This document shows, in pieces, positions 1 to 57,902 of a DNA stretch of 58,034 nucleotides. The position numbers were made by a program, and so were the translations under genes. The stretch comes from a virus, in the IMG/VR virus record IMGVR_UViG_3300029337_000010, positions 1 through 58,034 of that record. One strand, given 5' to 3'. Positions within the stretch are counted from its first letter, which is position 1, and every line of letters starts with the position of its first letter. Under the pieces are notes generated by a model that saw only the letters and a program-made list of their open reading frames with translations, ran no database searches and was not told the origin of the DNA.

Positions 1-75
1 GCTTCACAAGGTTTTCAATTTTAAAAAAATAGTAGCGGAAGGGAGATTTGAACTCGGTATCAAGCCCCGCAAACC
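1..75. repeat. 75-bp terminal direct repeat, left copy (att core or circular-assembly overlap)
   Basis: Bases 1-75 are identical to 57960-58034. The repeat lies about 50 bp from the 3' end of a tyrosine integrase gene. On the minus strand it contains a T-loop-like GAGTTCAAATCTC, but I cannot fold a full tRNA. Confidence 0.95.
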
Positions 76-4672: not shown

Positions 4673-4745
4673 CTTGGCATAGCTCAGTGGATAGAGCGCG
4701 CCTCCTATAAAGGCATGGTCGTGGGTTCGAGTCCCACTGCCCCTG
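4673..4745 (+). tRNA. tRNA-like gene with anticodon loop CCUAUAA (UAU, Ile-type) and a defective acceptor stem
   Basis: The D arm (GCTCAGTGGATAGAGC) and T arm (GTGGGTTCGAGTCCCAC) are canonical. Only 4 of 7 acceptor pairs form (GGCA/TGCC). Position 33 is C. It is opposite in strand to all its neighbours. Confidence 0.6.
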
Positions 4746-6054: not shown

Positions 6055-6327
6055 TTACTTTAAAATTTCATCTAAGCAGGCATTCCAACCCACCCGACGT
6101 ATTGATGTGCTGAGATCTTCATAACCAGATTTCAACTCTGGTATCTTCTCCGGCAGTTCCCGGAGCGGACACCAGTCTGGTCTATCTTCGTAGTGACCGC
6201 CATTTATCGGAATTGTTTTCCCTGTAATAGCACAGTCGTAAAGAGCATCGTCTTTATAACTGGGATATTTGCAAGTGCAATTTTCACAGGTATCCGGCAT
6301 ATCCATTACCAATACTGCTTTAGGCAT
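6055..6327 (-). CDS. Hypothetical Cys-rich phage protein
   Basis: 90 aa with the pattern MDMPDTCENCTC...RPDWCPL. Confidence 0.55.
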   Translation of the reverse strand: MPKAVLVMDMPDTCENCTCKYPSYKDDALYDCAITGKTIPINGGHYEDRPDWCPLRELPEKIPELKSGYEDLSTSIRRVGWNACLDEILK

Positions 6328-6359
6328 CTTTGCACCTCCTAGTATCTCAACTTAATCAA

Positions 6360-6518
6360 TTATTTATATTTTTTGTAGTTACATTTACCATTTCTGCAAC
6401 GGCATTTCCACTCAAGATCGTTGTCTTTGGTCTTATACGCATGTTTACAGGTCAAGCATTTCTTTAGCCAATCCGGCATATATTCACTGCTACAGGTTTC
6501 CTCTGTTCCTTTCGGCAT
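6360..6518 (-). CDS. Small Cys-rich protein
   Basis: The internal start MPKGTEE has an AAGGAG RBS about 10 nt upstream. It contains CxxC motifs. Confidence 0.5.
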   Translation of the reverse strand: MPKGTEETCSSEYMPDWLKKCLTCKHAYKTKDNDLEWKCRCRNGKCNYKKYK

Positions 6519-6523
6519 ATCAT

Positions 6524-7162
6524 TCACACTCCTTCCGGCTTCTCGCACCGTTCAAATTCGATAACCCAAACCCACGGTGATGCATCCCAACCGTAGCGGT
6601 CAAGGTCTGATTTCTTGATGGTGGAATTCCACAATGCTTGCATAGCTCCTATTGGAGTTGTGTAGCAATTATGCATATCTGTTTCTTGTTTCCAAGTAAA
6701 TCCTGTTGGACATTCATCATACTGTATGCCTTCACGTTTTGCTTGCTCATCGGTTATCTCCTGCAACCGCTCCACCCTAACATCCGTAACCTTTAACCAG
6801 ATACGTGCGGCTTCTTTCGGCATGTGGATGGATGGTTTCCACTTTGTAACATCGGCAATATCATCTTTCTGCCAATCTTCGTAGTAATAGTATCCTTTCG
6901 GTGCCTCTTTCCATGTTTCACGAACATACAGGATATCGCCCGTACAGATAGGACAGGTTCTCTCCGCCGTACTTAACTGTTCCATCTGCTCCTTATCAGC
7001 AAAGTTATGTACTGCATAAGTTCTCTTGTCGGCATTGTAAAATTCCATATCCGGTACGGTATACTCATTTGCATCTTTGCATATCCGCCTTGTACAACTC
7101 TTTCTTCCGGCCAGAATTGCCCGAACCATCTCGGTATTGAATAAAATCGGTTTAATTGCCAT
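6524..7162 (-). CDS. ASCH-domain-like phage protein
   Basis: 212 aa. ILFNTEMVRAILAGRKSCTRR and YVRETW are typical of ASCH-type phage proteins. Confidence 0.6.
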   Translation of the reverse strand: MAIKPILFNTEMVRAILAGRKSCTRRICKDANEYTVPDMEFYNADKRTYAVHNFADKEQMEQLSTAERTCPICTGDILYVRETWKEAPKGYYYYEDWQKDDIADVTKWKPSIHMPKEAARIWLKVTDVRVERLQEITDEQAKREGIQYDECPTGFTWKQETDMHNCYTTPIGAMQALWNSTIKKSDLDRYGWDASPWVWVIEFERCEKPEGV

Positions 7163-7415
7163 CTACTCCACCGCCTTCCACAATCTCGATTGCGTGCTCA
7201 TAACTTCTTGCTTTCTCTTTTCCCAAATTCCTGTTGTATGCATTCTCCCAAAACTTTCTCTCATTTTCCAACTGCTCCACAACCTTGTCTACATCATAAG
7301 CCGTCGGATATTCTTCTAGTAAATACAATACTGCATTTGTATTTACTAAAGTTCCATTGCTTAAAGTAACCGATTTTAAATCTTTCTTCAGCGCATCCGC
7401 ATCAATCAGTCTCAT
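7152..7415 (-). CDS. Hypothetical protein
   Basis: Start at MRLIDADALKK with an AGGAGG RBS. The longer 119-aa frame upstream looks non-coding. Confidence 0.5.
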   Translation of the reverse strand: MRLIDADALKKDLKSVTLSNGTLVNTNAVLYLLEEYPTAYDVDKVVEQLENERKFWENAYNRNLGKEKARSYEHAIEIVEGGGVDGN

Positions 7416-7653
7416 CGTTCGCCCTCCTGTTCCAATCTGTAGTTGCTTTCGTTCGCTCGTCTTTCCCTGTTCTGATGCCTCCGTCCTGATCCATGTACAT
7501 CTCACATTCATAGCTTTTTGGAAGTTCTGTTCCGCATTTCATACATTTGATTTTGAACATTACCCCAACAGCCGAATGTGATGACTTATTTGTAATGGTT
7601 AAGAAAATTGCGTTTCCACCGCAGAACGGACATGGCTTCAATCTTTCACTCAT
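7402..7653 (-). CDS. Lar-family restriction-alleviation-like zinc-ribbon protein
   Basis: 83 aa. LKPCPFCGG...KCMKCG...DWNRRA matches the Lar-family pattern. Confidence 0.65.
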   Translation of the reverse strand: MSERLKPCPFCGGNAIFLTITNKSSHSAVGVMFKIKCMKCGTELPKSYECEMYMDQDGGIRTGKDERTKATTDWNRRANDETD

Positions 7654-50442: not shown

Positions 50443-50845
50443 TTTTGTGCCTTGTATGTCAATAGTTTTTTGTGCCTTATCTCAGAATTTTTTCATCGTG
50501 TTCCAGTTTCTCCGCTACCGCTAACTTGATAAAATCGTTTGCGCTCTTATACCCCAGCCTTTCAATGCGTTCTTTGGTGCCTTTGGAAAACCTGCAATTA
50601 ACTCGCTCAAACTTATCGTCATACTTATATATTGCACGCCTTTTTGCTTCGCTTGTTTTATGTTCCATTTAACTTACCACCTTCCTATATTCTTTTTGTA
50701 TATTATATCCTTTTGTGCCTTGTATGTCAATATTGATTCGTTCTCTTGTTATGGTTTTTGTGCCTTGTATGTTTTTCACAATGTATTGCTATTTTTGTGC
50801 CTTGTATTTCGTGTATTATTACTATTGTTTTTGTGCCTTGCATAT
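50443..50845 (+). repeat. Six same-orientation iterons TTTTGTGCCTT(G/A)(T/C)AT.. flanking the RHH gene
   Basis: Copies start at 50443, 50468, 50711, 50756, 50793 and 50829. Copies 1 and 3 are identical over 22 bp. Confidence 0.9.
50477..50668 (-). CDS. Ribbon-helix-helix (Arc/CopG-type) regulator
   Basis: 63 aa. ERVNCRFSKGTKERIERLGYKSANDFIKLAV fits a beta strand followed by two helices. Confidence 0.6.
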   Translation of the reverse strand: MEHKTSEAKRRAIYKYDDKFERVNCRFSKGTKERIERLGYKSANDFIKLAVAEKLEHDEKILR

Positions 50846-50890
50846 ACTATAATACAACTATCAAATGAAGCACGAAAGAGAGGAACGAAC

Positions 50891-51226
50891 ATGAAAGATT
50901 ATACAAAGTTTATGAAATGGGCAGTTGTTTACATAACCGACAGAAAAGGACAGGACGACAGGAAGAGCAAAGTTAAAGTTGAAGCTCTTTTCAGTTCTCC
51001 AGTACAGGCAGAGGATAATTACATCATCCGCAACCAAGAAATTAAGCGATATATCCTCCATGTGGATGATTTAGAAGAGTTTGAAACAGTGTACAATCAG
51101 TTGCAAGATTTAAGGGAAAAATATGGAGAATATGCAATCTTCCACGTTAAAGACCTTAATCTTAGTTGTGATAAGGAAAACAAATGGCGCGAGATATTAA
51201 AAGTATATACAAGCATTGACTTTTAG
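50891..51226 (+). CDS. Hypothetical protein, first gene of the plus-strand operon
   Basis: ATG at 50891 preceded by GAAAGAGAGGAA. 111 aa. Confidence 0.55.
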   Translation: MKDYTKFMKWAVVYITDRKGQDDRKSKVKVEALFSSPVQAEDNYIIRNQEIKRYILHVDDLEEFETVYNQLQDLREKYGEYAIFHVKDLNLSCDKENKWREILKVYTSIDF

Positions 51227-51303
51227 CCGAAACGCTCCTATCTGGAGCGTCAGCCGCGGGATGGTCTCCCGGCTCTGATGATGGCAGACCAGAAAGGAAA
51301 TAC

Positions 51304-52941: not shown

Positions 52942-53262
52942 CTATGCCGCCCTCCAATCAATGTTTGCCATCAAATCATCCAGCAAATAAATCAAATCTG
53001 CCCCATACAGGCTTATCCAGTCCGCGAGATACTCTTCCTGCTCAATCGGCATATGAATGTTATAGGAAAAACAAAAACAATGGCAAAGCTCATGAGCCAG
53101 TATTTTGCGCAAATAACCATTTTTCGGTTTATCTGAAACATATATAGCCCTGTCGTTCCAATCTGTCACGGCAAGGCTGGTAGAGCTATCAGAGCGCATC
53201 AGCTTGCTGCTTGCACTGTGAACAAATTCTATTTTCCATTCAATACCATTTATCAAAAACAT
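52942..53262 (-). CDS. HExxH zinc metalloprotease (ImmA/IrrE- or SprT-like)
   Basis: 106 aa with the motif ILAHELCHCF. Confidence 0.65.
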   Translation of the reverse strand: MFLINGIEWKIEFVHSASSKLMRSDSSTSLAVTDWNDRAIYVSDKPKNGYLRKILAHELCHCFCFSYNIHMPIEQEEYLADWISLYGADLIYLLDDLMANIDWRAA

Positions 53263-53337: not shown

Positions 53338-53976
53338 TTATTCTTCAATAAGTAGGTAATTAATGTATCTTGTCGCCGTATCGTTGAGGTCTCTATTGAA
53401 ATCAAGCAGATCAAGAGCGTATTCCGGTGGATATCCATAACTGGCGTAATATGCCTTTTCGATTGCGCGTAAGTTGTGCAGATCCGATAATTCCACTAGA
53501 ATCTTGTGATATAAAAATTTTCGAGTCCAACCAAACCGTTCTAGGATTATACTTAACTTCCAGTTGTTCTTTGAAAACCATGTTTCCGTTTCATGTTTCC
53601 ATCGAATCTCCCAGTGCTCAAACGGGTCTTTCTCCGTAATTGCAGGCTGCGGTTTTTTCAGCGCTTGTTCCATGTCGTGAAAGCGATTGATGTATTGAGC
53701 TGTGAAAGCCGTTCCCTTTGCTCCGGTCAGCTTGTGGGCGATAAATTCGCAACCTTTCTTGGTAATGTCGTAGCATGGACAACTTTTTTTCTGCTCTGTA
53801 CAATATGTGCTTTCTATGAAGAAATCGGAAAAGTCAATATTTACTTCTCCTAATTGCTTACAGTATCGCCGGATATCTTTTAATAAATTGGCGTGTGTCT
53901 TTCCAACCATTTCCGCGACTTCCATACTGGTTAGAGTTTGTTCTAATTGCTTCATCTGAATATCATTCATCAGCAA
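53338..53976 (-). CDS. Rha-family phage regulatory protein
   Basis: 212 aa. TSMEVAEMVGKTHANLLKDIRRY...ITKKGCEFIAHKLTGAKGTAFTAQYINRFHDME matches the Rha N-domain pattern. Confidence 0.8.
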   Translation of the reverse strand: MLMNDIQMKQLEQTLTSMEVAEMVGKTHANLLKDIRRYCKQLGEVNIDFSDFFIESTYCTEQKKSCPCYDITKKGCEFIAHKLTGAKGTAFTAQYINRFHDMEQALKKPQPAITEKDPFEHWEIRWKHETETWFSKNNWKLSIILERFGWTRKFLYHKILVELSDLHNLRAIEKAYYASYGYPPEYALDLLDFNRDLNDTATRYINYLLIEE

Positions 53977-53987
53977 ATCCCCCTCTC

Positions 53988-54230
53988 TTATACTTTCGGA
54001 ACATAAGTTCCGTCCATAATGCCGATAGCAAGTTTCATGCCCTCTACGGCATAGAATCGGTTGCTGTCAGTAGTACAGTCAATAAGAAGTTCGAGCAATT
54101 CATCATAAACACTTTCGCTTACAATGCCCTTAAGTCTCTCCATGAGCGGTTCAAAAAATTCACGCCATTTCCCACCCTGTTCCTCATCTGCAATTTGACT
54201 TGCGTATACTATTTCCAAAAATTTGTTCAT
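53988..54230 (-). CDS. Hypothetical protein (80 aa)
   Basis: Start at MNKFLEIVY. Confidence 0.45.
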   Translation of the reverse strand: MNKFLEIVYASQIADEEQGGKWREFFEPLMERLKGIVSESVYDELLELLIDCTTDSNRFYAVEGMKLAIGIMDGTYVPKV

Positions 54231-54361
54231 TATCTTGCACCGCCTTTCTCTTCCTGCGGTTCGGAAATGTTCTTTGCGGCTTTGTATATTGCTTCGCATA
54301 CATAGATGCTCTGCGTGCTCAAAAGTTCTGCTATTTTCTCAATTGTTTCGGTTCTGGTCAT
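54230..54361 (-). CDS. Small hypothetical protein (43 aa)
   Basis: Start at MTRTETIEK with RBS AAGGAAGG. Confidence 0.35.
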   Translation of the reverse strand: MTRTETIEKIAELLSTQSIYVCEAIYKAAKNISEPQEEKGGAR

Positions 54362-54478
54362 AGATTTTTCCTTCCTTTCAATTTTTTCTTGAAAAGAGAT
54401 ACTCTCTATGATAAAATATTTCACAGAGAGTTATCTCGGTTGATAAGAAGTTGTTTTCGTTGGTAGCGTGGCAACTTC

Positions 54479-54652
54479 TTATTTTTTTTGACCTTTTAGC
54501 TTTTCAATCCCCGCCCTTATAAGTTCTAATATGGAATATCCACTTTCTGATGAAAATTTCATAATTTCATCTTTTTCTTGCTTCGATACTCGAACATAAA
54601 GTCTTTCATTCATAGGATTGTCAACTTTAGGTCTGCCTGTGCGTGGAGACAT
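54479..54652 (-). CDS. Ribbon-helix-helix (CopG-type) regulator
   Basis: Start at MSPRTGRPKVDNPMNERLYVRVSKQEKDEI... The pattern GRPK...R.YVRVS..E is typical of RHH N termini. Confidence 0.65.
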   Translation of the reverse strand: MSPRTGRPKVDNPMNERLYVRVSKQEKDEIMKFSSESGYSILELIRAGIEKLKGQKK

Positions 54653-54670
54653 TCTCAGCACCTTCTTTCT

Positions 54671-54711
54671 GTACGCACATTTAATATATAATAGTACGCA
54701 CAAAAAGTCAA
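54671..54711 (-). promoter_or_regulatory. Promoter TTGACT-N17-TATATT bracketed by two TGTGCGTAC repeats
   Basis: The -35 is at 54706-54711 and the -10 at 54683-54688. The 9-mers are at 54671-54679 and 54694-54702, read on the minus strand. Confidence 0.65.
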
Positions 54712-54770
54712 TACTTTTTTTAAAAATTTCCAAATCCACAAATCACTAGCTGATATTCAGTTGTCAATGT

Positions 54771-54798
54771 TCAAACAAACAGGGGCATTCCTGCCCCT
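54771..54798 (-). terminator. Rho-independent terminator after the five-gene cassette
   Basis: AGGGGCA-GGAA-TGCCCCT followed by GTTTGTTTG on the minus strand. Confidence 0.7.
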
Positions 54799-54802
54799 GC
54801 CA

Positions 54803-55450
54803 TTACATTTTGGAAACAAGCGTTGACAGCTTGCTTTTTGTCATTGTGCGCTCTTCCGGCGTCATATCGGAGATAAGTTCCGCCATATCCTCCGAAAGCT
54901 CTTTCATGTACTTTTCAAGGTCACGCATTTTTGCATCCTTGTCTTCTGGCGTATTTCCTCTATGGAGTTCTTTGCTTTCCATGTAGGATTTACGGCTCAT
55001 TCCGCTTTTACCCTCTCTGCGGTCACGCATACCGCCATCTGCCGCAATTGTAGGCTCTGTGTAATACATTCGCCCATGTGGTCGATCAATGTCGCGGTCA
55101 TGCTCCATATCGTGATACATTTCCGGTGTCATGTGCCAGTAAGGCGGCTCGTCATATCCTCTCCGCGTTCCTCTTCCCTTTGGAGCAAACCTCCCGTTTT
55201 CATAACGATAACGGTCATAATACCGTCTGCCGTCTCCGTAACGCTCAAACATATCAAGAACCTGCTCTGGGTCTGATTCGTCCATTGATTTTGTAAGCGT
55301 CCGGTAATACATGGCTTCCGCAAGGTCTTTAAGCATGTCCGTGACTTTTCCCATCTCTTCTGTATCTACACATTCGATACCTTTTGCAAACTCACACTCT
55401 GCGCTTTCAGACAGTTTTTCGATCATTTCGTGCATTCTCTTAATATCCAT
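54803..55450 (-). CDS. Arg/Tyr/Asp/Met-rich low-complexity protein
   Basis: Start at MDIKRMHEM with RBS AAGGAGGG. The centre reads RRYYDRYRYENGRFAPKGRGTRRGYDEPPYWHM. Confidence 0.6.
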   Translation of the reverse strand: MDIKRMHEMIEKLSESAECEFAKGIECVDTEEMGKVTDMLKDLAEAMYYRTLTKSMDESDPEQVLDMFERYGDGRRYYDRYRYENGRFAPKGRGTRRGYDEPPYWHMTPEMYHDMEHDRDIDRPHGRMYYTEPTIAADGGMRDRREGKSGMSRKSYMESKELHRGNTPEDKDAKMRDLEKYMKELSEDMAELISDMTPEERTMTKSKLSTLVSKM

Positions 55451-55463
55451 AAAACCGCCCTCC

Positions 55464-55886
55464 TTACGCTTCCCGGACTGCAATTAAATTGCTGTTCTGA
55501 ACCTCGATTGCCTGCGCAGAAGTATTCTGTACCGCTACCGTAACACAACAACCGCGAGGAACGTCCACATATGCCTGCGCCGAAACGTTAAAGAAGTTTT
55601 CAACTGCCGCCGGTGTAACAATCATTCGAGTTGACTGCAACGGTTCTCCGTCAATTGCAATAGACAGTGAAATAGCTTCAACTGTTCCACCTGTAGGAAT
55701 TTGAATGTTTCCGGAATAAGATACCAAAAATCTTGCCCGGCACTGATTTGTAAGTCCTCTTAATTTAACAATGCCACTTCCCTGTCTATGAACAATGCAT
55801 TTTGTTGCACATACCGGAGTTTCTTTAAATGCCACATCTTCTCCCTGCGCGACAGTTTGAATTGCAATTCCTGTAAATTCTGCCAT
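55464..55886 (-). CDS. Small beta-rich protein resembling C1q/TNF-like (BclA C-terminal type) jelly-roll domains
   Basis: 140 aa. ARFLVSYSGNIQ...ISLSIAIDGEPLQST...VAVQNTS..IEVQNSNL has this pattern. The resemblance is by pattern only. Confidence 0.55.
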   Translation of the reverse strand: MAEFTGIAIQTVAQGEDVAFKETPVCATKCIVHRQGSGIVKLRGLTNQCRARFLVSYSGNIQIPTGGTVEAISLSIAIDGEPLQSTRMIVTPAAVENFFNVSAQAYVDVPRGCCVTVAVQNTSAQAIEVQNSNLIAVREA

Positions 55887-56026
55887 AATAATACCTCTCT
55901 TTCATAGAAATAAGGGCAAACATTATAGTCTGCCCTTTGTGTTTATAAGCAATACTGCACAGCAGACATAATCGAGTTAAACTCAATTAAGATACTCAAT
56001 TATTCAATTTTGTGTAGCAGCTACTT

Positions 56027-56818
56027 TTAGCAGCTACATCCTGTGTTACATCCACAACCATACGCATAAGCGTTAGGATTTGGCACAACATATGCCGGGA
56101 TTGCAGCCGGATTTACAGCGTTGATGATCTGCTGGGTCTGCGCTGACATTGCAGTAGTGAGCAATGCAGACTGGCGATCCTGTGAAGCGGCTCTTCTTAA
56201 GTCGTTATTTTCTGCCTGTAAGGAAGAAATCTTTTCCTGGCACAGGTAATCAAGGATTGCCCTTGTTCCTGCCTGCTGACTGTCAATAATGTCTCTCGTG
56301 TTGCTGTTCATGGTGTTCTGCAGCGCACAGGTGTTCTGCGCCATATTGTAGTTCACGCCCTGGATAGCTTCTCTGGTCTCACAGCAGCAATTAGCCAGCT
56401 GGGACTGCAAAGCATTCTGTGCCTGCATAAGTGTTACATTTGTGGTATTAAATCCCTGCTGCGTCTGATATCCAAGGTTGCAGATTGCATTGTCTACACC
56501 ATGGAAACCGTTCATAACGGCGGTATTCTGTGCGTAAAATCCATCACAGAGACCATTTGCAATACCATCTAACTTCCCGATGATAGCCTGCGTGTCAAAT
56601 CCACGCTGAATTGCAGAGTCGGTGTATGCAGATGCTGTCGCTCCCATGCCTCCGTTTCCTCCCAAGCCATTGCCGCCAAAGCCGCCCCAGCCAAAAATCA
56701 TAGCGAAGATAATGATAGCCCACCAGCCATCGCCGCCCCACATGCCATCATTGTTTCTTCCGTTTCCTGTCACTGCTGCAATATCAGCAAGACTAGGAGA
56801 TGCGTTTCCATTAAACAT
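56027..56818 (-). CDS. Gly-rich single-pass membrane protein with Cys clusters (CCCET, YGCGCNTGCSC)
   Basis: Start at MFNGN with RBS GGAGGT. WWAIIIFAMIFGWGGFGGNGLGGNGG is followed by a Gln/Asn-rich helical region. Confidence 0.65.
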   Translation of the reverse strand: MFNGNASPSLADIAAVTGNGRNNDGMWGGDGWWAIIIFAMIFGWGGFGGNGLGGNGGMGATASAYTDSAIQRGFDTQAIIGKLDGIANGLCDGFYAQNTAVMNGFHGVDNAICNLGYQTQQGFNTTNVTLMQAQNALQSQLANCCCETREAIQGVNYNMAQNTCALQNTMNSNTRDIIDSQQAGTRAILDYLCQEKISSLQAENNDLRRAASQDRQSALLTTAMSAQTQQIINAVNPAAIPAYVVPNPNAYAYGCGCNTGCSC

Positions 56819-56887
56819 TTTGTTTACCTCCATCTGATTTATTTACAAATGGGATAACCGGTTATTGTGCGCGCAACCCAAAATGTA

Positions 56888-57088
56888 CTAATGATTAAAC
56901 ATACTCATAACCTTTTGCTTTGCTTCATCTACTGTAATTCCTCTTTCTTTGCAGAGATTCTCCGCCATTGTCTTAAGTCCGACCGTATCTCCGCTTTGAT
57001 ACATCTGCATGGCATTTTTAGCCATTGGATTGTTTTGCATCTGCGGAGAATTTATCATTTGGTTCAAAATCATTTGCATCAGATTCAT
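56888..57088 (-). CDS. Small Met/Gln/Asn-rich protein
   Basis: 66 aa: MNLMQMILNQMINSPQMQNNPMAKNAMQMYQ... Confidence 0.5.
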   Translation of the reverse strand: MNLMQMILNQMINSPQMQNNPMAKNAMQMYQSGDTVGLKTMAENLCKERGITVDEAKQKVMSMFNH

Positions 57089-57612
57089 TCGGATTCACTC
57101 TCCTTTTTAATTTGAGAAGTTTTTTTCTGTGGAACCGGAATTTTACCAATACGTTCCTCTAACTGTTCAATTTTCCCAAACAGTTCGTCAAACTTTCCCA
57201 TAAATGCCCCTGTGCACTCGTCTGATAGGTCAAATTTCATTTTTTCCGTCTCATGCGATAAATTGTTAGTCATATCATTTAAAACAGGCTTAAAAACGAT
57301 TGTGCGGATTGTACCATCTGAGTTCCAGCTTTTGGCGTATATTTCCGACATATCCTGCTTTGGGAAAAACGCCACGCTTCCATCCATCGGCACATCGTTT
57401 GCAGTAATATTTTCAACAGAAGGCACAATTTTCCCATTTATTCCAATAGGCGTCATTTGTGTCTGCTGAATTTGCTGTGTTTGCGCCGGTTGAAAATAAT
57501 TTTGCGGCTGTTCAATTCTTTGCTGATTACCATATGGATTATACCCATATGATGCCTGATAAGGAATTTGCTGACTATATCCCGGTGCCGGATAAACTCC
57601 GTTCATGTTCAT
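57085..57612 (-). CDS. Protein with a Gln/Pro/Tyr-rich N terminus and a C-terminal coiled coil
   Basis: Start at MNMNGVYPAPGYSQQ with a GGAGG RBS. About 175 aa. Confidence 0.6.
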   Translation of the reverse strand: MNMNGVYPAPGYSQQIPYQASYGYNPYGNQQRIEQPQNYFQPAQTQQIQQTQMTPIGINGKIVPSVENITANDVPMDGSVAFFPKQDMSEIYAKSWNSDGTIRTIVFKPVLNDMTNNLSHETEKMKFDLSDECTGAFMGKFDELFGKIEQLEERIGKIPVPQKKTSQIKKESESE

Positions 57613-57776
57613 TTTCTTCAACCTCCTCCAAAACATCCTCGATTGCGTGAATGATAGATGACTGCGTTGACAAATCTAATGATTGCAATTCTTTTCTGGC
57701 AAAAATTTTCTCAAGAACATCGTCAGAAAACATTATCATCCCTCCCTTTGCTTATATTGTGGCATAAAAAAAGACG

Positions 57777-57811
57777 GTAAAACCGCCAGAATACCGTCTA
57801 AATAACGCCTG
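57777..57811 (-). terminator. Rho-independent terminator (first of two near att)
   Basis: AGACGGTA-N12-TACCGTCT followed by T7 on the minus strand. Confidence 0.7.
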
Positions 57812-57841
57812 TTTCCCGCCGTATCACCGCCAAAATTGCAA

Positions 57842-57866
57842 TAAAAAAAGAACGCCTTAAGCGTTC
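57842..57866 (-). terminator. Rho-independent terminator (second of two near att)
   Basis: GAACGC-TTAAG-GCGTTC followed by T7 on the minus strand. Confidence 0.7.
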
Positions 57867-57878
57867 GTACGTTTGTTC

Positions 57879-57902
57879 GTGTTACCTTTGGTGTTACCTT
57901 TG
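57879..57902. promoter_or_regulatory. Tandem GTGTTACCTTTG x2, candidate integrase arm-type sites (P arm)
   Basis: A perfect 12-mer duplicated head to tail. It has the same 9-mer core as 108-126. Confidence 0.55.

Follow-up and report, generated by a model that had tools for sequence, protein, structure and literature searches.

A six-gene cassette beside the attachment site of a tailed gut phage is one copy of a mobile viral accessory operon

Genes and products of the cassette

The stretch of DNA analysed here is virus record IMGVR_UViG_3300029337_000010 of IMG/VR, taken at its full length of 58,034 nt (positions 1 to 58,034) and referred to below as the window. It is a tailed-phage genome with nearly all of its transcription from the minus strand, and close to its right-hand end it contains, between terminator hairpins, a cassette of six minus-strand genes, here called A, B, C, D, E, and F. 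An initial annotation, made from the sequence alone, had reported a cassette of five genes encoding cysteine-rich, glycine-rich, and low-complexity proteins. All five open reading frames (ORFs; B to F) are present at this place and on the minus strand, with the compositions and motifs that had been described, but a sixth gene, A, is also present and is conserved in relatives. The cassette belongs to a kind of accessory operon that is self-contained, moves horizontally among gut viruses, and has the layout A-B-C-D, then E-F, then a gene for a small peptidase.

Gene E (55464-55886, minus strand; phrog_20016) encodes a 140 amino acid protein that is predicted to be a stand-alone TNF/C1q-like jelly roll, similar to the C-terminal domain (CTD) of BclA and to BxpB and ExsFA. 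The AlphaFold2 (AF2) model has a pLDDT of 79.8 and a pTM of 0.74. When it was compared with the PDB using Foldseek, the top matches were the F-BclA CTD (9h38), BxpB (8d02), BclA (1wck), and ExsFA (7r1m), followed by EDA and 4-1BBL, with TM-scores of 0.68-0.75 and E-values of 6e-7 to 1e-4; the fibre of cyanophage A-1(L) and PRD1 P5 were also among the matches. For the structures of the BclA and BxpB type (8d02, 7r1m, 1wck, 9h38, and 9h3d) the TM-score is ~0.73, at 10-15 % identity in the structural alignments. The model therefore points to a ten-strand TNF-like jelly-roll fold, bearing out the suggestion in the initial annotation that this protein resembles the C1q/TNF-like domains of BclA. BxpB and ExsFA are likewise stand-alone proteins in the range of ~140-170 amino acids that lack a signal peptide.

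Sequence comparisons do not make this connection: protein E has no Pfam match at E ≤ 1 (BclA_C and C1q included), and a profile search against PDB sequences at E ≤ 10 returned nothing meaningful. No Pfam match to DUF3992 of Ena or DUF4183 of F-ENA was found for protein E or for the proteins in its slot in loci L114, L115, and L116. No collagen-like GXX repeat region precedes the jelly-roll domain, so that the nap architecture of the BclA type is not encountered. The relatives of E were surveyed as 759 representatives at 50 % identity, and the best 150 of these 759 are all stand-alone, of 76-196 amino acids, without fusion to collagen or fibre sequences; stand-alone look-alikes are also found among other gut virome proteins. 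Cys30, Cys49, and Cys113-114 are invariant among close relatives, and in distant members the CC pair near residue 113 and the cysteine near residue 49 are mostly kept. Some relatives carry extra poly-Cys inserts, such as CQCCCNNCCCN.

Gene D (56027-56818, minus strand; phrog_16490) encodes a 263 amino acid membrane protein containing GWGGFGGNGLGGNGG, a CCCET motif, and a C-terminal YGCGCNTGCSC. Members of this family share an order of regions, with a short acidic N-terminal tail that is nearly without Lys and Arg, a short single transmembrane (TM) segment flanked by Trp, a Gly-rich stretch, and then ~150 residues that are predicted to be helical, carry little charge but abundant Gln and Asn, and include an invariant CCC. 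Towards the C-terminus there is a conserved P-x-P-A-Y-x-V-x-N-P motif (P-A-Y-x-V-P-N-P in the window protein), followed by a Cys-rich tail. The net charge is more positive on the C-terminal side of the TM segment in 24 out of 30 homologues and on the N-terminal side in one, which favours a topology with the N-terminus outside and the Cys-rich domain in the cytoplasm. No Pfam match to a holin, XhlA, or spanin and no lysis PHROG was found for D. In one locus (L108:5472-8260) the module appears to be decaying: D has three cysteines, versus 9-16 elsewhere, and lacks the Cys-rich tail, E is broken into two ORFs, and B is shortened, all in the same copy.

The remaining products are small or of biased composition. 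Gene A (57575-57733, minus strand) encodes a 52 amino acid acidic helical protein and shares 38 nt with the start of B; its homologues lie 5′ of B in 83 loci and also in Dulem virus 39. Gene B (57085-57612, minus strand; phrog_21718) encodes 175 amino acids, comprising a disordered N-terminus of ~55 residues rich in Gln, Pro, Tyr, and Asn, a conserved small domain (GINGKIV...DGTIRTIVFKP), and a helical C-terminal tail. Pro, Gln, Tyr, Asn, Met, and Gly make up 40-82 % of its first 60 residues, a composition kept across 35 homologues. The start codon of gene C (56888-57088, minus strand) overlaps the stop codon of B (ATGA), and its 66 amino acid product is rich in Met, Gln, and Asn (17 % Met), with counterparts in Dulem virus 39, Butyrivibrio virus Ceridwen, Clostridium perfringens phage XP41-N3, and prophages in metagenome-assembled genomes (MAGs). 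Gene F (54803-55450, minus strand) encodes 215 amino acids, including RRYYDRYRYENGRF, with helical N- and C-terminal ends on either side of a disordered core rich in Arg, Tyr, and Asp, and also in Met and His; among its homologues, Arg and Tyr account for 32-38 % of the best 50-residue window in 19 out of 25. The bias of both B and F is kept although their sequences drift. Reading of the sequences identified no signal peptide in B, C, E, or F, and there is no lipobox protein in the module.

Homologues were counted as 90 %-identity clusters at E ≤ 1e-3, giving at least 7996 clusters for D, at least 6798 for E, and at least 1339 for B. Nearly all come from phage-size gut metagenome contigs, and they lack Pfam domains and informative names throughout. 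Because there are thousands of homologous clusters for D, E, and B, the cassette genes are judged to be real and not chance ORFs. Scans of the cassette proteins and their neighbours against Pfam, NCBIfam, PHROGs, and PADLOC returned only PHROGs of unknown function (21718, 16490, and 20016) and noise, with no clear match to known virion or lysis proteins, as the initial annotation had anticipated. In PADLOC-DB v2 the sole match was a weak one between the helical region of D and the tail of ZorA (E 0.0028, 14.5 bits). Sequence and profile searches of the PDB gave no match for E, D, B, or the peptidase K described below; only the peptidase J was matched, to selecase.

Linkage, distribution, and genomic position of the module

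Relatives of E were sought by a pattern scan using one genome per species, and hidden Markov models (HMMs) of the window proteins were then mapped on all of the loci that were fetched. Relatives were identified in 31 species of Clostridia, including Lachnospira intestinalis (94 % identity), other Lachnospiraceae, Acutalibacteraceae, Ruminococcus, Faecousia, and unnamed Clostridia. In every complete locus the order and strand B-(C)-D-E-(F) are constant, with the genes overlapping or closely spaced, even where the identity of E falls to ~45-50 %. Where the HMMs missed C or F, ORFs of equivalent composition were read in the same slots. The proteins are therefore a linked set, in the complete loci of the 31 species genomes and in cultured phages, and not scattered families, in line with the initial annotation. 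The source of all the fetched material is either a gut, rumen, or faecal sample or a taxon of gut type.

The module is also present in named viruses. It lies directly after the integrase gene in Dulem virus 39 and after the endolysin region in the cultured Butyrivibrio virus Ceridwen, which was judged virulent by its authors. Other cultured phages carrying it, in whole or in part, are CPD1, XP41-N3, and 17DYC of C. perfringens and C3_41T2LP of Bacteroides. A tblastn search with the short-type F identified, among well-studied phages, only those already known to carry the module. Relatives of D extend further, being found in crAss-like and Bacteroides phages (HMM E-values of 1e-31 to 1e-37), among them Bacteroides phage C3_41T2LP, and in six cultured C. 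perfringens phages; those in crAss-like phages are annotated as 'spike protein/glycoprotein'. Two viruses assigned to Methanomassiliicoccales have weaker matches, and phrog_16490 is annotated in those records themselves. In these viruses (L117:3152-4575 and 6289-7479; L118:6349-7974), D is found beside a phrog_1423 reverse transcriptase and large repeat proteins, which have C-terminal anchors and are adhesin-like.

Some of these phages have other proteins after D. In XP41-N3, B-C-D is followed by a different Cys-rich beta protein. In the crAss-like phage cr116_1 and in C3_41T2LP, four proteins come after D, namely a small beta protein with Cys, one with beta and coiled-coil parts, a mini-protein rich in Arg, Tyr, Asp, and Glu, and an HExxH protein, and this arrangement is analogous.

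The position of the module in the genome varies. It is next to the integrase gene and att in the window, in Dulem virus 39, and in L119-L121, and on the circular maps of the window phage and Dulem virus 39 the cassette falls in the interval from int/attP to the immunity region. Early and recombination genes surround it in XP41-N3 and C3_41T2LP, in L088 it has a minor head protein gene on one side and scaffold and capsid genes on the other, and in crAss-like phage cr116_1 it is near the holin and TerS genes. This variety of positions fits an autonomous, moron-like unit. The phages at L119 (4398-4886) and at L120 and L121 (3508-4869) are close relatives in which a large serine recombinase replaces the tyrosine integrase. 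On a 331-kb contig, a prophage abuts the 3′ part of a SigG-like sporulation sigma factor gene, with the module beside the junction, which suggests a skin-like intervening element.

Element ends, transcription signals, and the adjoining peptidase genes

The first and last 75 nt of the window (1-75 and 57960-58034) are identical, and this repeat bounds the element as its att site. On the minus strand the repeat contains, by eye, a T-arm and acceptor like the 3′ end of a tRNA, and ARAGORN called no tRNA there. The initial annotation had put the cassette just inside att, next to tandem terminators; the terminators are as reported, but the att site is this end repeat and not 57777-57866, which instead holds the two terminators. 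Two tandem CAAAGGTAACAC repeats (57879-57902, minus strand) and two inverted copies of GTGTTACC (108-125) were read from the sequence and are candidate arm-type sites for the integrase. The phage genes of the window include those for the integrase (128-1330) and the large terminase (42384-44117), and a DNA methyltransferase and a tRNA cluster are also encoded.

The A-F unit is bounded by three hairpins, and nearly all shuffled controls fold worse than these. The outer one upstream (57850-57866, minus strand) has a 7 bp stem and T7 (folding z -3.1), and the inner one (57773-57793, minus strand; z -3.3) is upstream of gene A. The latter, together with the conserved leader TTTTTTTATGCCAcAATATAAGCAAAGGGAGG directly before gene A, spans 57737-57793 (minus strand). 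The unit is closed by a hairpin at 54775-54798 (minus strand; -18.9 kcal/mol, z -3.6), in agreement with the terminator previously annotated near 54771-54798. The layout of hairpin, T-run, ATGCCAAAATnTAAGCA, and AGGAGG in the leader is also found in L083, L084, L091, and L096 and, in a looser form, in L002; it is absent in L098. Searches of Rfam identified no riboswitch or leader family within the cassette.

A further GC-rich hairpin with a U-rich tract is located in the gap between D and E (55912-55937, minus strand; -16.4 kcal/mol), where it may be an internal attenuator or a processing site, and it splits the cassette into A-D and E-F. Equivalent hairpins with differing stem sequences are found between D and E in 13 diverse loci. 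Based on the varied genome positions, the conserved leader, and the hairpin between D and E, the module would behave as an autonomous unit with two sub-operons. In L088 (5906-6940), a C5 DNA methyltransferase gene has been inserted exactly between D and E, at the spot of the conserved hairpin, and several further Lachnospiraceae loci have 0.6-1.4 kb inserted between these genes.

In relatives the module usually ends with the gene J, which in the window is at 52942-53262 (minus strand). The size of its product (106 amino acids), its motif, and its profile match indicate a probable minigluzincin-type metallopeptidase. In the alignment, H57-E58-x-x-H61 does not vary, and the J-type members have in common an EE motif further downstream; the profile matches MJ1213/selecase (4qhj, E 6.6e-5) and projannalysin (4jix, E 0.28). 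Minigluzincins such as these share with J the size of ~106 amino acids and the HExxH with a downstream Glu, but they are archaeal proteins, whereas J is viral and linked to the B-F set. A J-type gene of ~106 codons directly follows F in about ten diverse loci, including L119, and in L107 its start overlaps the stop of F. There is no helix-turn-helix (HTH) repressor gene after J in L107, L110, and L113, in which J is followed by opposite-strand genes or by those for terminase.

In the window, F and J are separated by 1.5 kb, due to an inserted unit that is not part of the module (53338-54739, minus strand). It has its own promoter and encodes a ribbon-helix-helix (RHH) regulator, an 80 amino acid ORF, and a Rha antirepressor, and it is absent between F and J in L002, L091, L096, L107, L110, L113, and L119. 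The promoter of the RHH gene, TTGACT-17-TATATT (window 54652-54740, minus strand), is flanked by two TGTGCGTAC repeats and is like an autoregulatory operator.

A second subtype, in Ceridwen, Oscillospirales-type MAGs, and some Lachnospiraceae, lacks A and instead has the gene K just upstream of B. The K proteins are of ~120-147 amino acids, belong to phrog_3754, and have Cys, His, and Asp residues that are invariant. Within 4.5 kb of D, J only was found in 80 loci, these being viral loci that are near-duplicates of the window, K only in 17, and both in none. Mutual exclusivity of J and K was nevertheless rejected, as four whole loci (L087-L089 and L094) hold both; a weaker statement is retained, that in both subtypes a small peptidase gene appears to abut the module. 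Just upstream of K or B in K-type modules there is, by eye, a small protein like sigma-70 region 4 or an HTH protein (L088:3607-3879, L100:4952-5164, and L105:4852-4995), which may be a dedicated activator. Many D proteins start with LSxxD(I/V)AAV(T/S)G(N/G), and an alternative TMPVxPA N-terminus accompanies either peptidase type. Export by way of a double-glycine leader and a C39 peptidase was considered but is not favoured: the motif fits in part and K has its invariant Cys, His, and Asp, but there is no ABC transporter and no correlation with K, K has no Pfam match to C39, and the window has no K.

Elsewhere in the window, ARAGORN called two tRNA-Ser, a tRNA-Tyr, and a tRNA-Gln at 45767-47263, and Rfam gave two extra tRNA-like matches that ARAGORN did not call (4676-4741, plus strand; 46624-46712, minus strand). 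A type II hammerhead ribozyme (51225-51293, plus strand; Rfam RF02276, 67.6 bits versus a gathering score of 37) is immediately 3′ of a plus-strand ORF (50660-51226), in a region like a lysogeny switch.

Possible role of the module

A unit that moves between unrelated viruses and functions in them would be expected to have a generic target. A membrane anchor, soluble partners of cytoplasmic origin, and low-complexity proteins that cohere together suggest a membrane-tethered intracellular assembly. In the proposed arrangement, D would be inserted in the cytoplasmic membrane with its acidic N-terminal tail outside and its Gly-rich linker, helical hairpin (CCC), proline motif, and Cys-rich tail inside. 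Protein E, probably as a trimer, would dock on D, perhaps at the P-A-Y-x-V-x-N-P motif or the Cys tail, in the way that ExsF/BxpB binds N-terminal peptides of its collagen-like partners. A cohesive coat- or gel-like layer would be added by three proteins of low complexity, B (Tyr/Gln/Pro), C (Met/Gln/Asn), and F (Arg/Tyr/Asp). One of the components would be matured by the small peptidase, which is the HExxH protein J in modules of the window type and the putatively papain-like K (Cys-His-Asp) in the other subtype. Such an assembly would benefit the virus within the cell that it infects or lysogenises, most plausibly as a barrier or membrane-modifying device against competing phages, and would not decorate host spores. 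The two parts of this reading, an assembly on the cytoplasmic side of the membrane and a role in superinfection exclusion, are taken together, and they are put forward tentatively, as a possible explanation. A more specific version is rather improbable: that viruses of strictly anaerobic gut microbes, bacterial and perhaps archaeal, share a mobile operon building a membrane-tethered, protease-matured, coat- or condensate-like layer inside the infected cell. Its parts would be a Gly/Cys-rich anchor, a TNF-fold trimer, and disordered proteins rich in Tyr/Gln, Met/Gln, and Arg/Tyr, held together by Tyr-Arg and Met/Cys chemistry that redox state or metals might affect.

Two known kinds of phage system offer partial parallels. 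The interval between int and the immunity region is the site of exclusion genes such as sie2009 and ltp in Gram-positive temperate phages. The module resembles these in its position between int/attP and immunity, in having a membrane-anchored product, and in being an insulated moron-like unit. It differs in that sie2009 and ltp are single genes for small membrane proteins or lipoproteins, without homology, by PHROG or Pfam match, to this set of six to seven genes with disordered proteins, and in that the module is also found in phages judged virulent and at other genome positions. Protein p16.7 of phi29, with a membrane anchor, a coiled coil, and a functional domain, organises phage DNA replication at the membrane, and the proposed D is like it in its N-terminal anchor and its long cytoplasmic helical region recruiting soluble partners. 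There is no homology between the two, however; D is rich in Cys and Gly, is twice the size, and has no recognised DNA-binding domain, and the module moves between viruses with unrelated replication systems.

Several observations weigh against an exclusion assembly. No homology links any member of the module to a function, and known exclusion proteins are encoded by single genes, unlike a set of six to seven genes that includes disordered proteins. Outside the Clostridia, D alone is seen and not the whole set, and hhalign found no relationship between the profile of E and the proteins in the E slot of cr116_1, C3_41T2LP, and XP41-N3. The topology signal of D is weak, with a mean charge difference of ~1 and nearly uncharged Gly/Asn flanks, and its helical hairpin is a secondary-structure call alone. 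The structure and profile searches that the initial annotation had proposed yielded a fold for E, but the AF2 model of D (32 close homologues) had a pLDDT of 38 and was unused for fold search, and D had no PDB sequence match. J also resembles lysogeny peptidases of the ImmA type (ImmA/SprT; weak Pfam matches), and J-like genes are several kb from the module in L087-L089 and L094. Lastly, there is no evident module-specific promoter, the conserved leader having only a weak -10-like TATAAG and no -35.

The initial annotation had favoured lysogenic-conversion cargo that is expressed from the prophage and forms a disulfide-cross-linked extracellular or spore-surface (exosporium-like) layer on the host; its alternative, a condensate-forming set, is possible. 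The fold of E is that of the BclA CTD, BxpB, and ExsFA, and the Cys-rich D and Arg/Tyr-rich F recall coat proteins of the ExsY/CotY and CotG/ExsB types. The cassette is at the prophage end and is insulated by terminators, some relatives are integrated in a sigG-like gene, and the spore former C. perfringens is host to phages with B-C-D. The exosporium parallel is a loose one, in which ExsY/CotY, ExsB/CotG, and the way that BclA is attached to BxpB by proteolysis are set against the Cys-rich and Arg/Tyr-rich partners and the peptidase of the module. The module has neither sequence similarity to BclA or BxpB nor a collagen-like partner, and it is virus-borne, including in hosts that do not sporulate. 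Butyrivibrio, Bacteroides, and gut methanogens are non-sporulating, and all are among the hosts, the methanogens being assigned hosts for D; the module is found in Ceridwen, judged virulent, and D in crAss-like phages; the module occupies varying genome positions, one of them within a head-gene cluster; B, C, E, and F lack signal peptides; and the charges of D favour a cytoplasmic Cys domain. Because of host range, lifestyle, position, and export signals, both the conversion and the spore-surface interpretations fail, and a layer of this kind is very unlikely. It is likewise highly improbable that the module is a metal or redox device, with the Met-rich C and F, the CCC and CxCxxxCxC of D, and the cysteines of E binding Cu, Zn, or Fe-S or sensing oxidation. 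C has MxM and MxxxM spacing in addition to its 17 % Met, F has 10 % Met with a His/Met/Asp patch, there are poly-Cys inserts in some E relatives, a YbjQ_1 gene ('putative heavy-metal-binding') is a few genes downstream in L119 and L121, and all known hosts are gut anaerobes. Composition is the sole basis for this suggestion, however, with no homology to metal-binding families; the short-type F lacks the His/Met patch, and a TNF-fold protein and a peptidase would be left unexplained.

Two further roles may be considered. The products might be associated with the particle or released at lysis. In that case E would serve as a trimeric lectin or decoration of the TNF type, and the sticky B, C, F, and D would form an adhesive coat; together they would bind gut glycans or debris, so that virions persist in mucus or progeny avoid dead cells. 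TNF/C1q-like domains form receptor-binding tips of phage fibres, as in the A-1(L) fibre and PRD1 P5 matches of E; in L088 the module has a minor head protein gene on one side and scaffold and capsid genes on the other; in the methanogen-assigned viruses D adjoins a tail protein gene and the adhesin-like repeat proteins; the fetched matches are uniformly of gut origin or gut-type taxa; and the conserved cysteines could cross-link after release. This role is nonetheless rather unlikely, since the module has no fixed place in structural modules and is common to sipho-like, crAss-like, and archaeal tailed viruses with differing particles, E has no attachment domain and no fibre fusion among the best 150 of its 759 relatives, D is membrane-anchored, and the PHROGs have no structural annotation. 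As an accessory to lysis or egress, a holin- or spanin-like D and its partners would time or complete the disruption of the envelope. The module follows the endolysin region in Ceridwen and is near holin and L,D-carboxypeptidase genes in cr116_1, and in the methanogen-assigned viruses D is 3′ of tail genes, a frequent site of lysis genes. D also resembles i-spanins of the lambda Rz type and XhlA/BhlA-type proteins in its N-terminal TM segment, helical coiled-coil segments, and conserved cysteines. It differs from them in the lack of a Pfam match and of an o-spanin lipoprotein partner, in hosts that are mostly monoderm, where a spanin is needless, and in helices that are likely to be cytoplasmic. 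No holin or endolysin family is recognised among the genes flanking the cassette in the window, the XP41-N3 and C3_41T2LP modules are among early and recombination genes, and five soluble partners would be unexplained; a role in lysis is therefore quite unlikely.

The gene set fits no known kind of system. The initial annotation had recognised none, and none is described in the curated family databases, the defence catalogue, or the PDB (by sequence), or in the literature searched on Ceridwen and the other named phages, BclA/TNF-like proteins, crAss-like phages, methanogen viruses, exosporium and prophages, and phage phase separation. The module is found in temperate phages of Lachnospiraceae, in a phage that its authors judged virulent, and in C. 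perfringens phages that are in culture, and its core protein D extends to crAss-like and methanogen-assigned viruses. Since cultured phages carry it, the question of its role is testable. Position alone is a poor ground for calling cassettes at prophage ends lysogenic-conversion cargo, and the fold of the BclA/BxpB type is not confined to spore surfaces. If the protease-matured intracellular layer is real, viruses would build inside cells a kind of structure that has not been recognised before. With thousands of clusters in gut metagenomes and a strict gene order, it is likely that the module represents an important, undescribed step in the biology of gut viruses.

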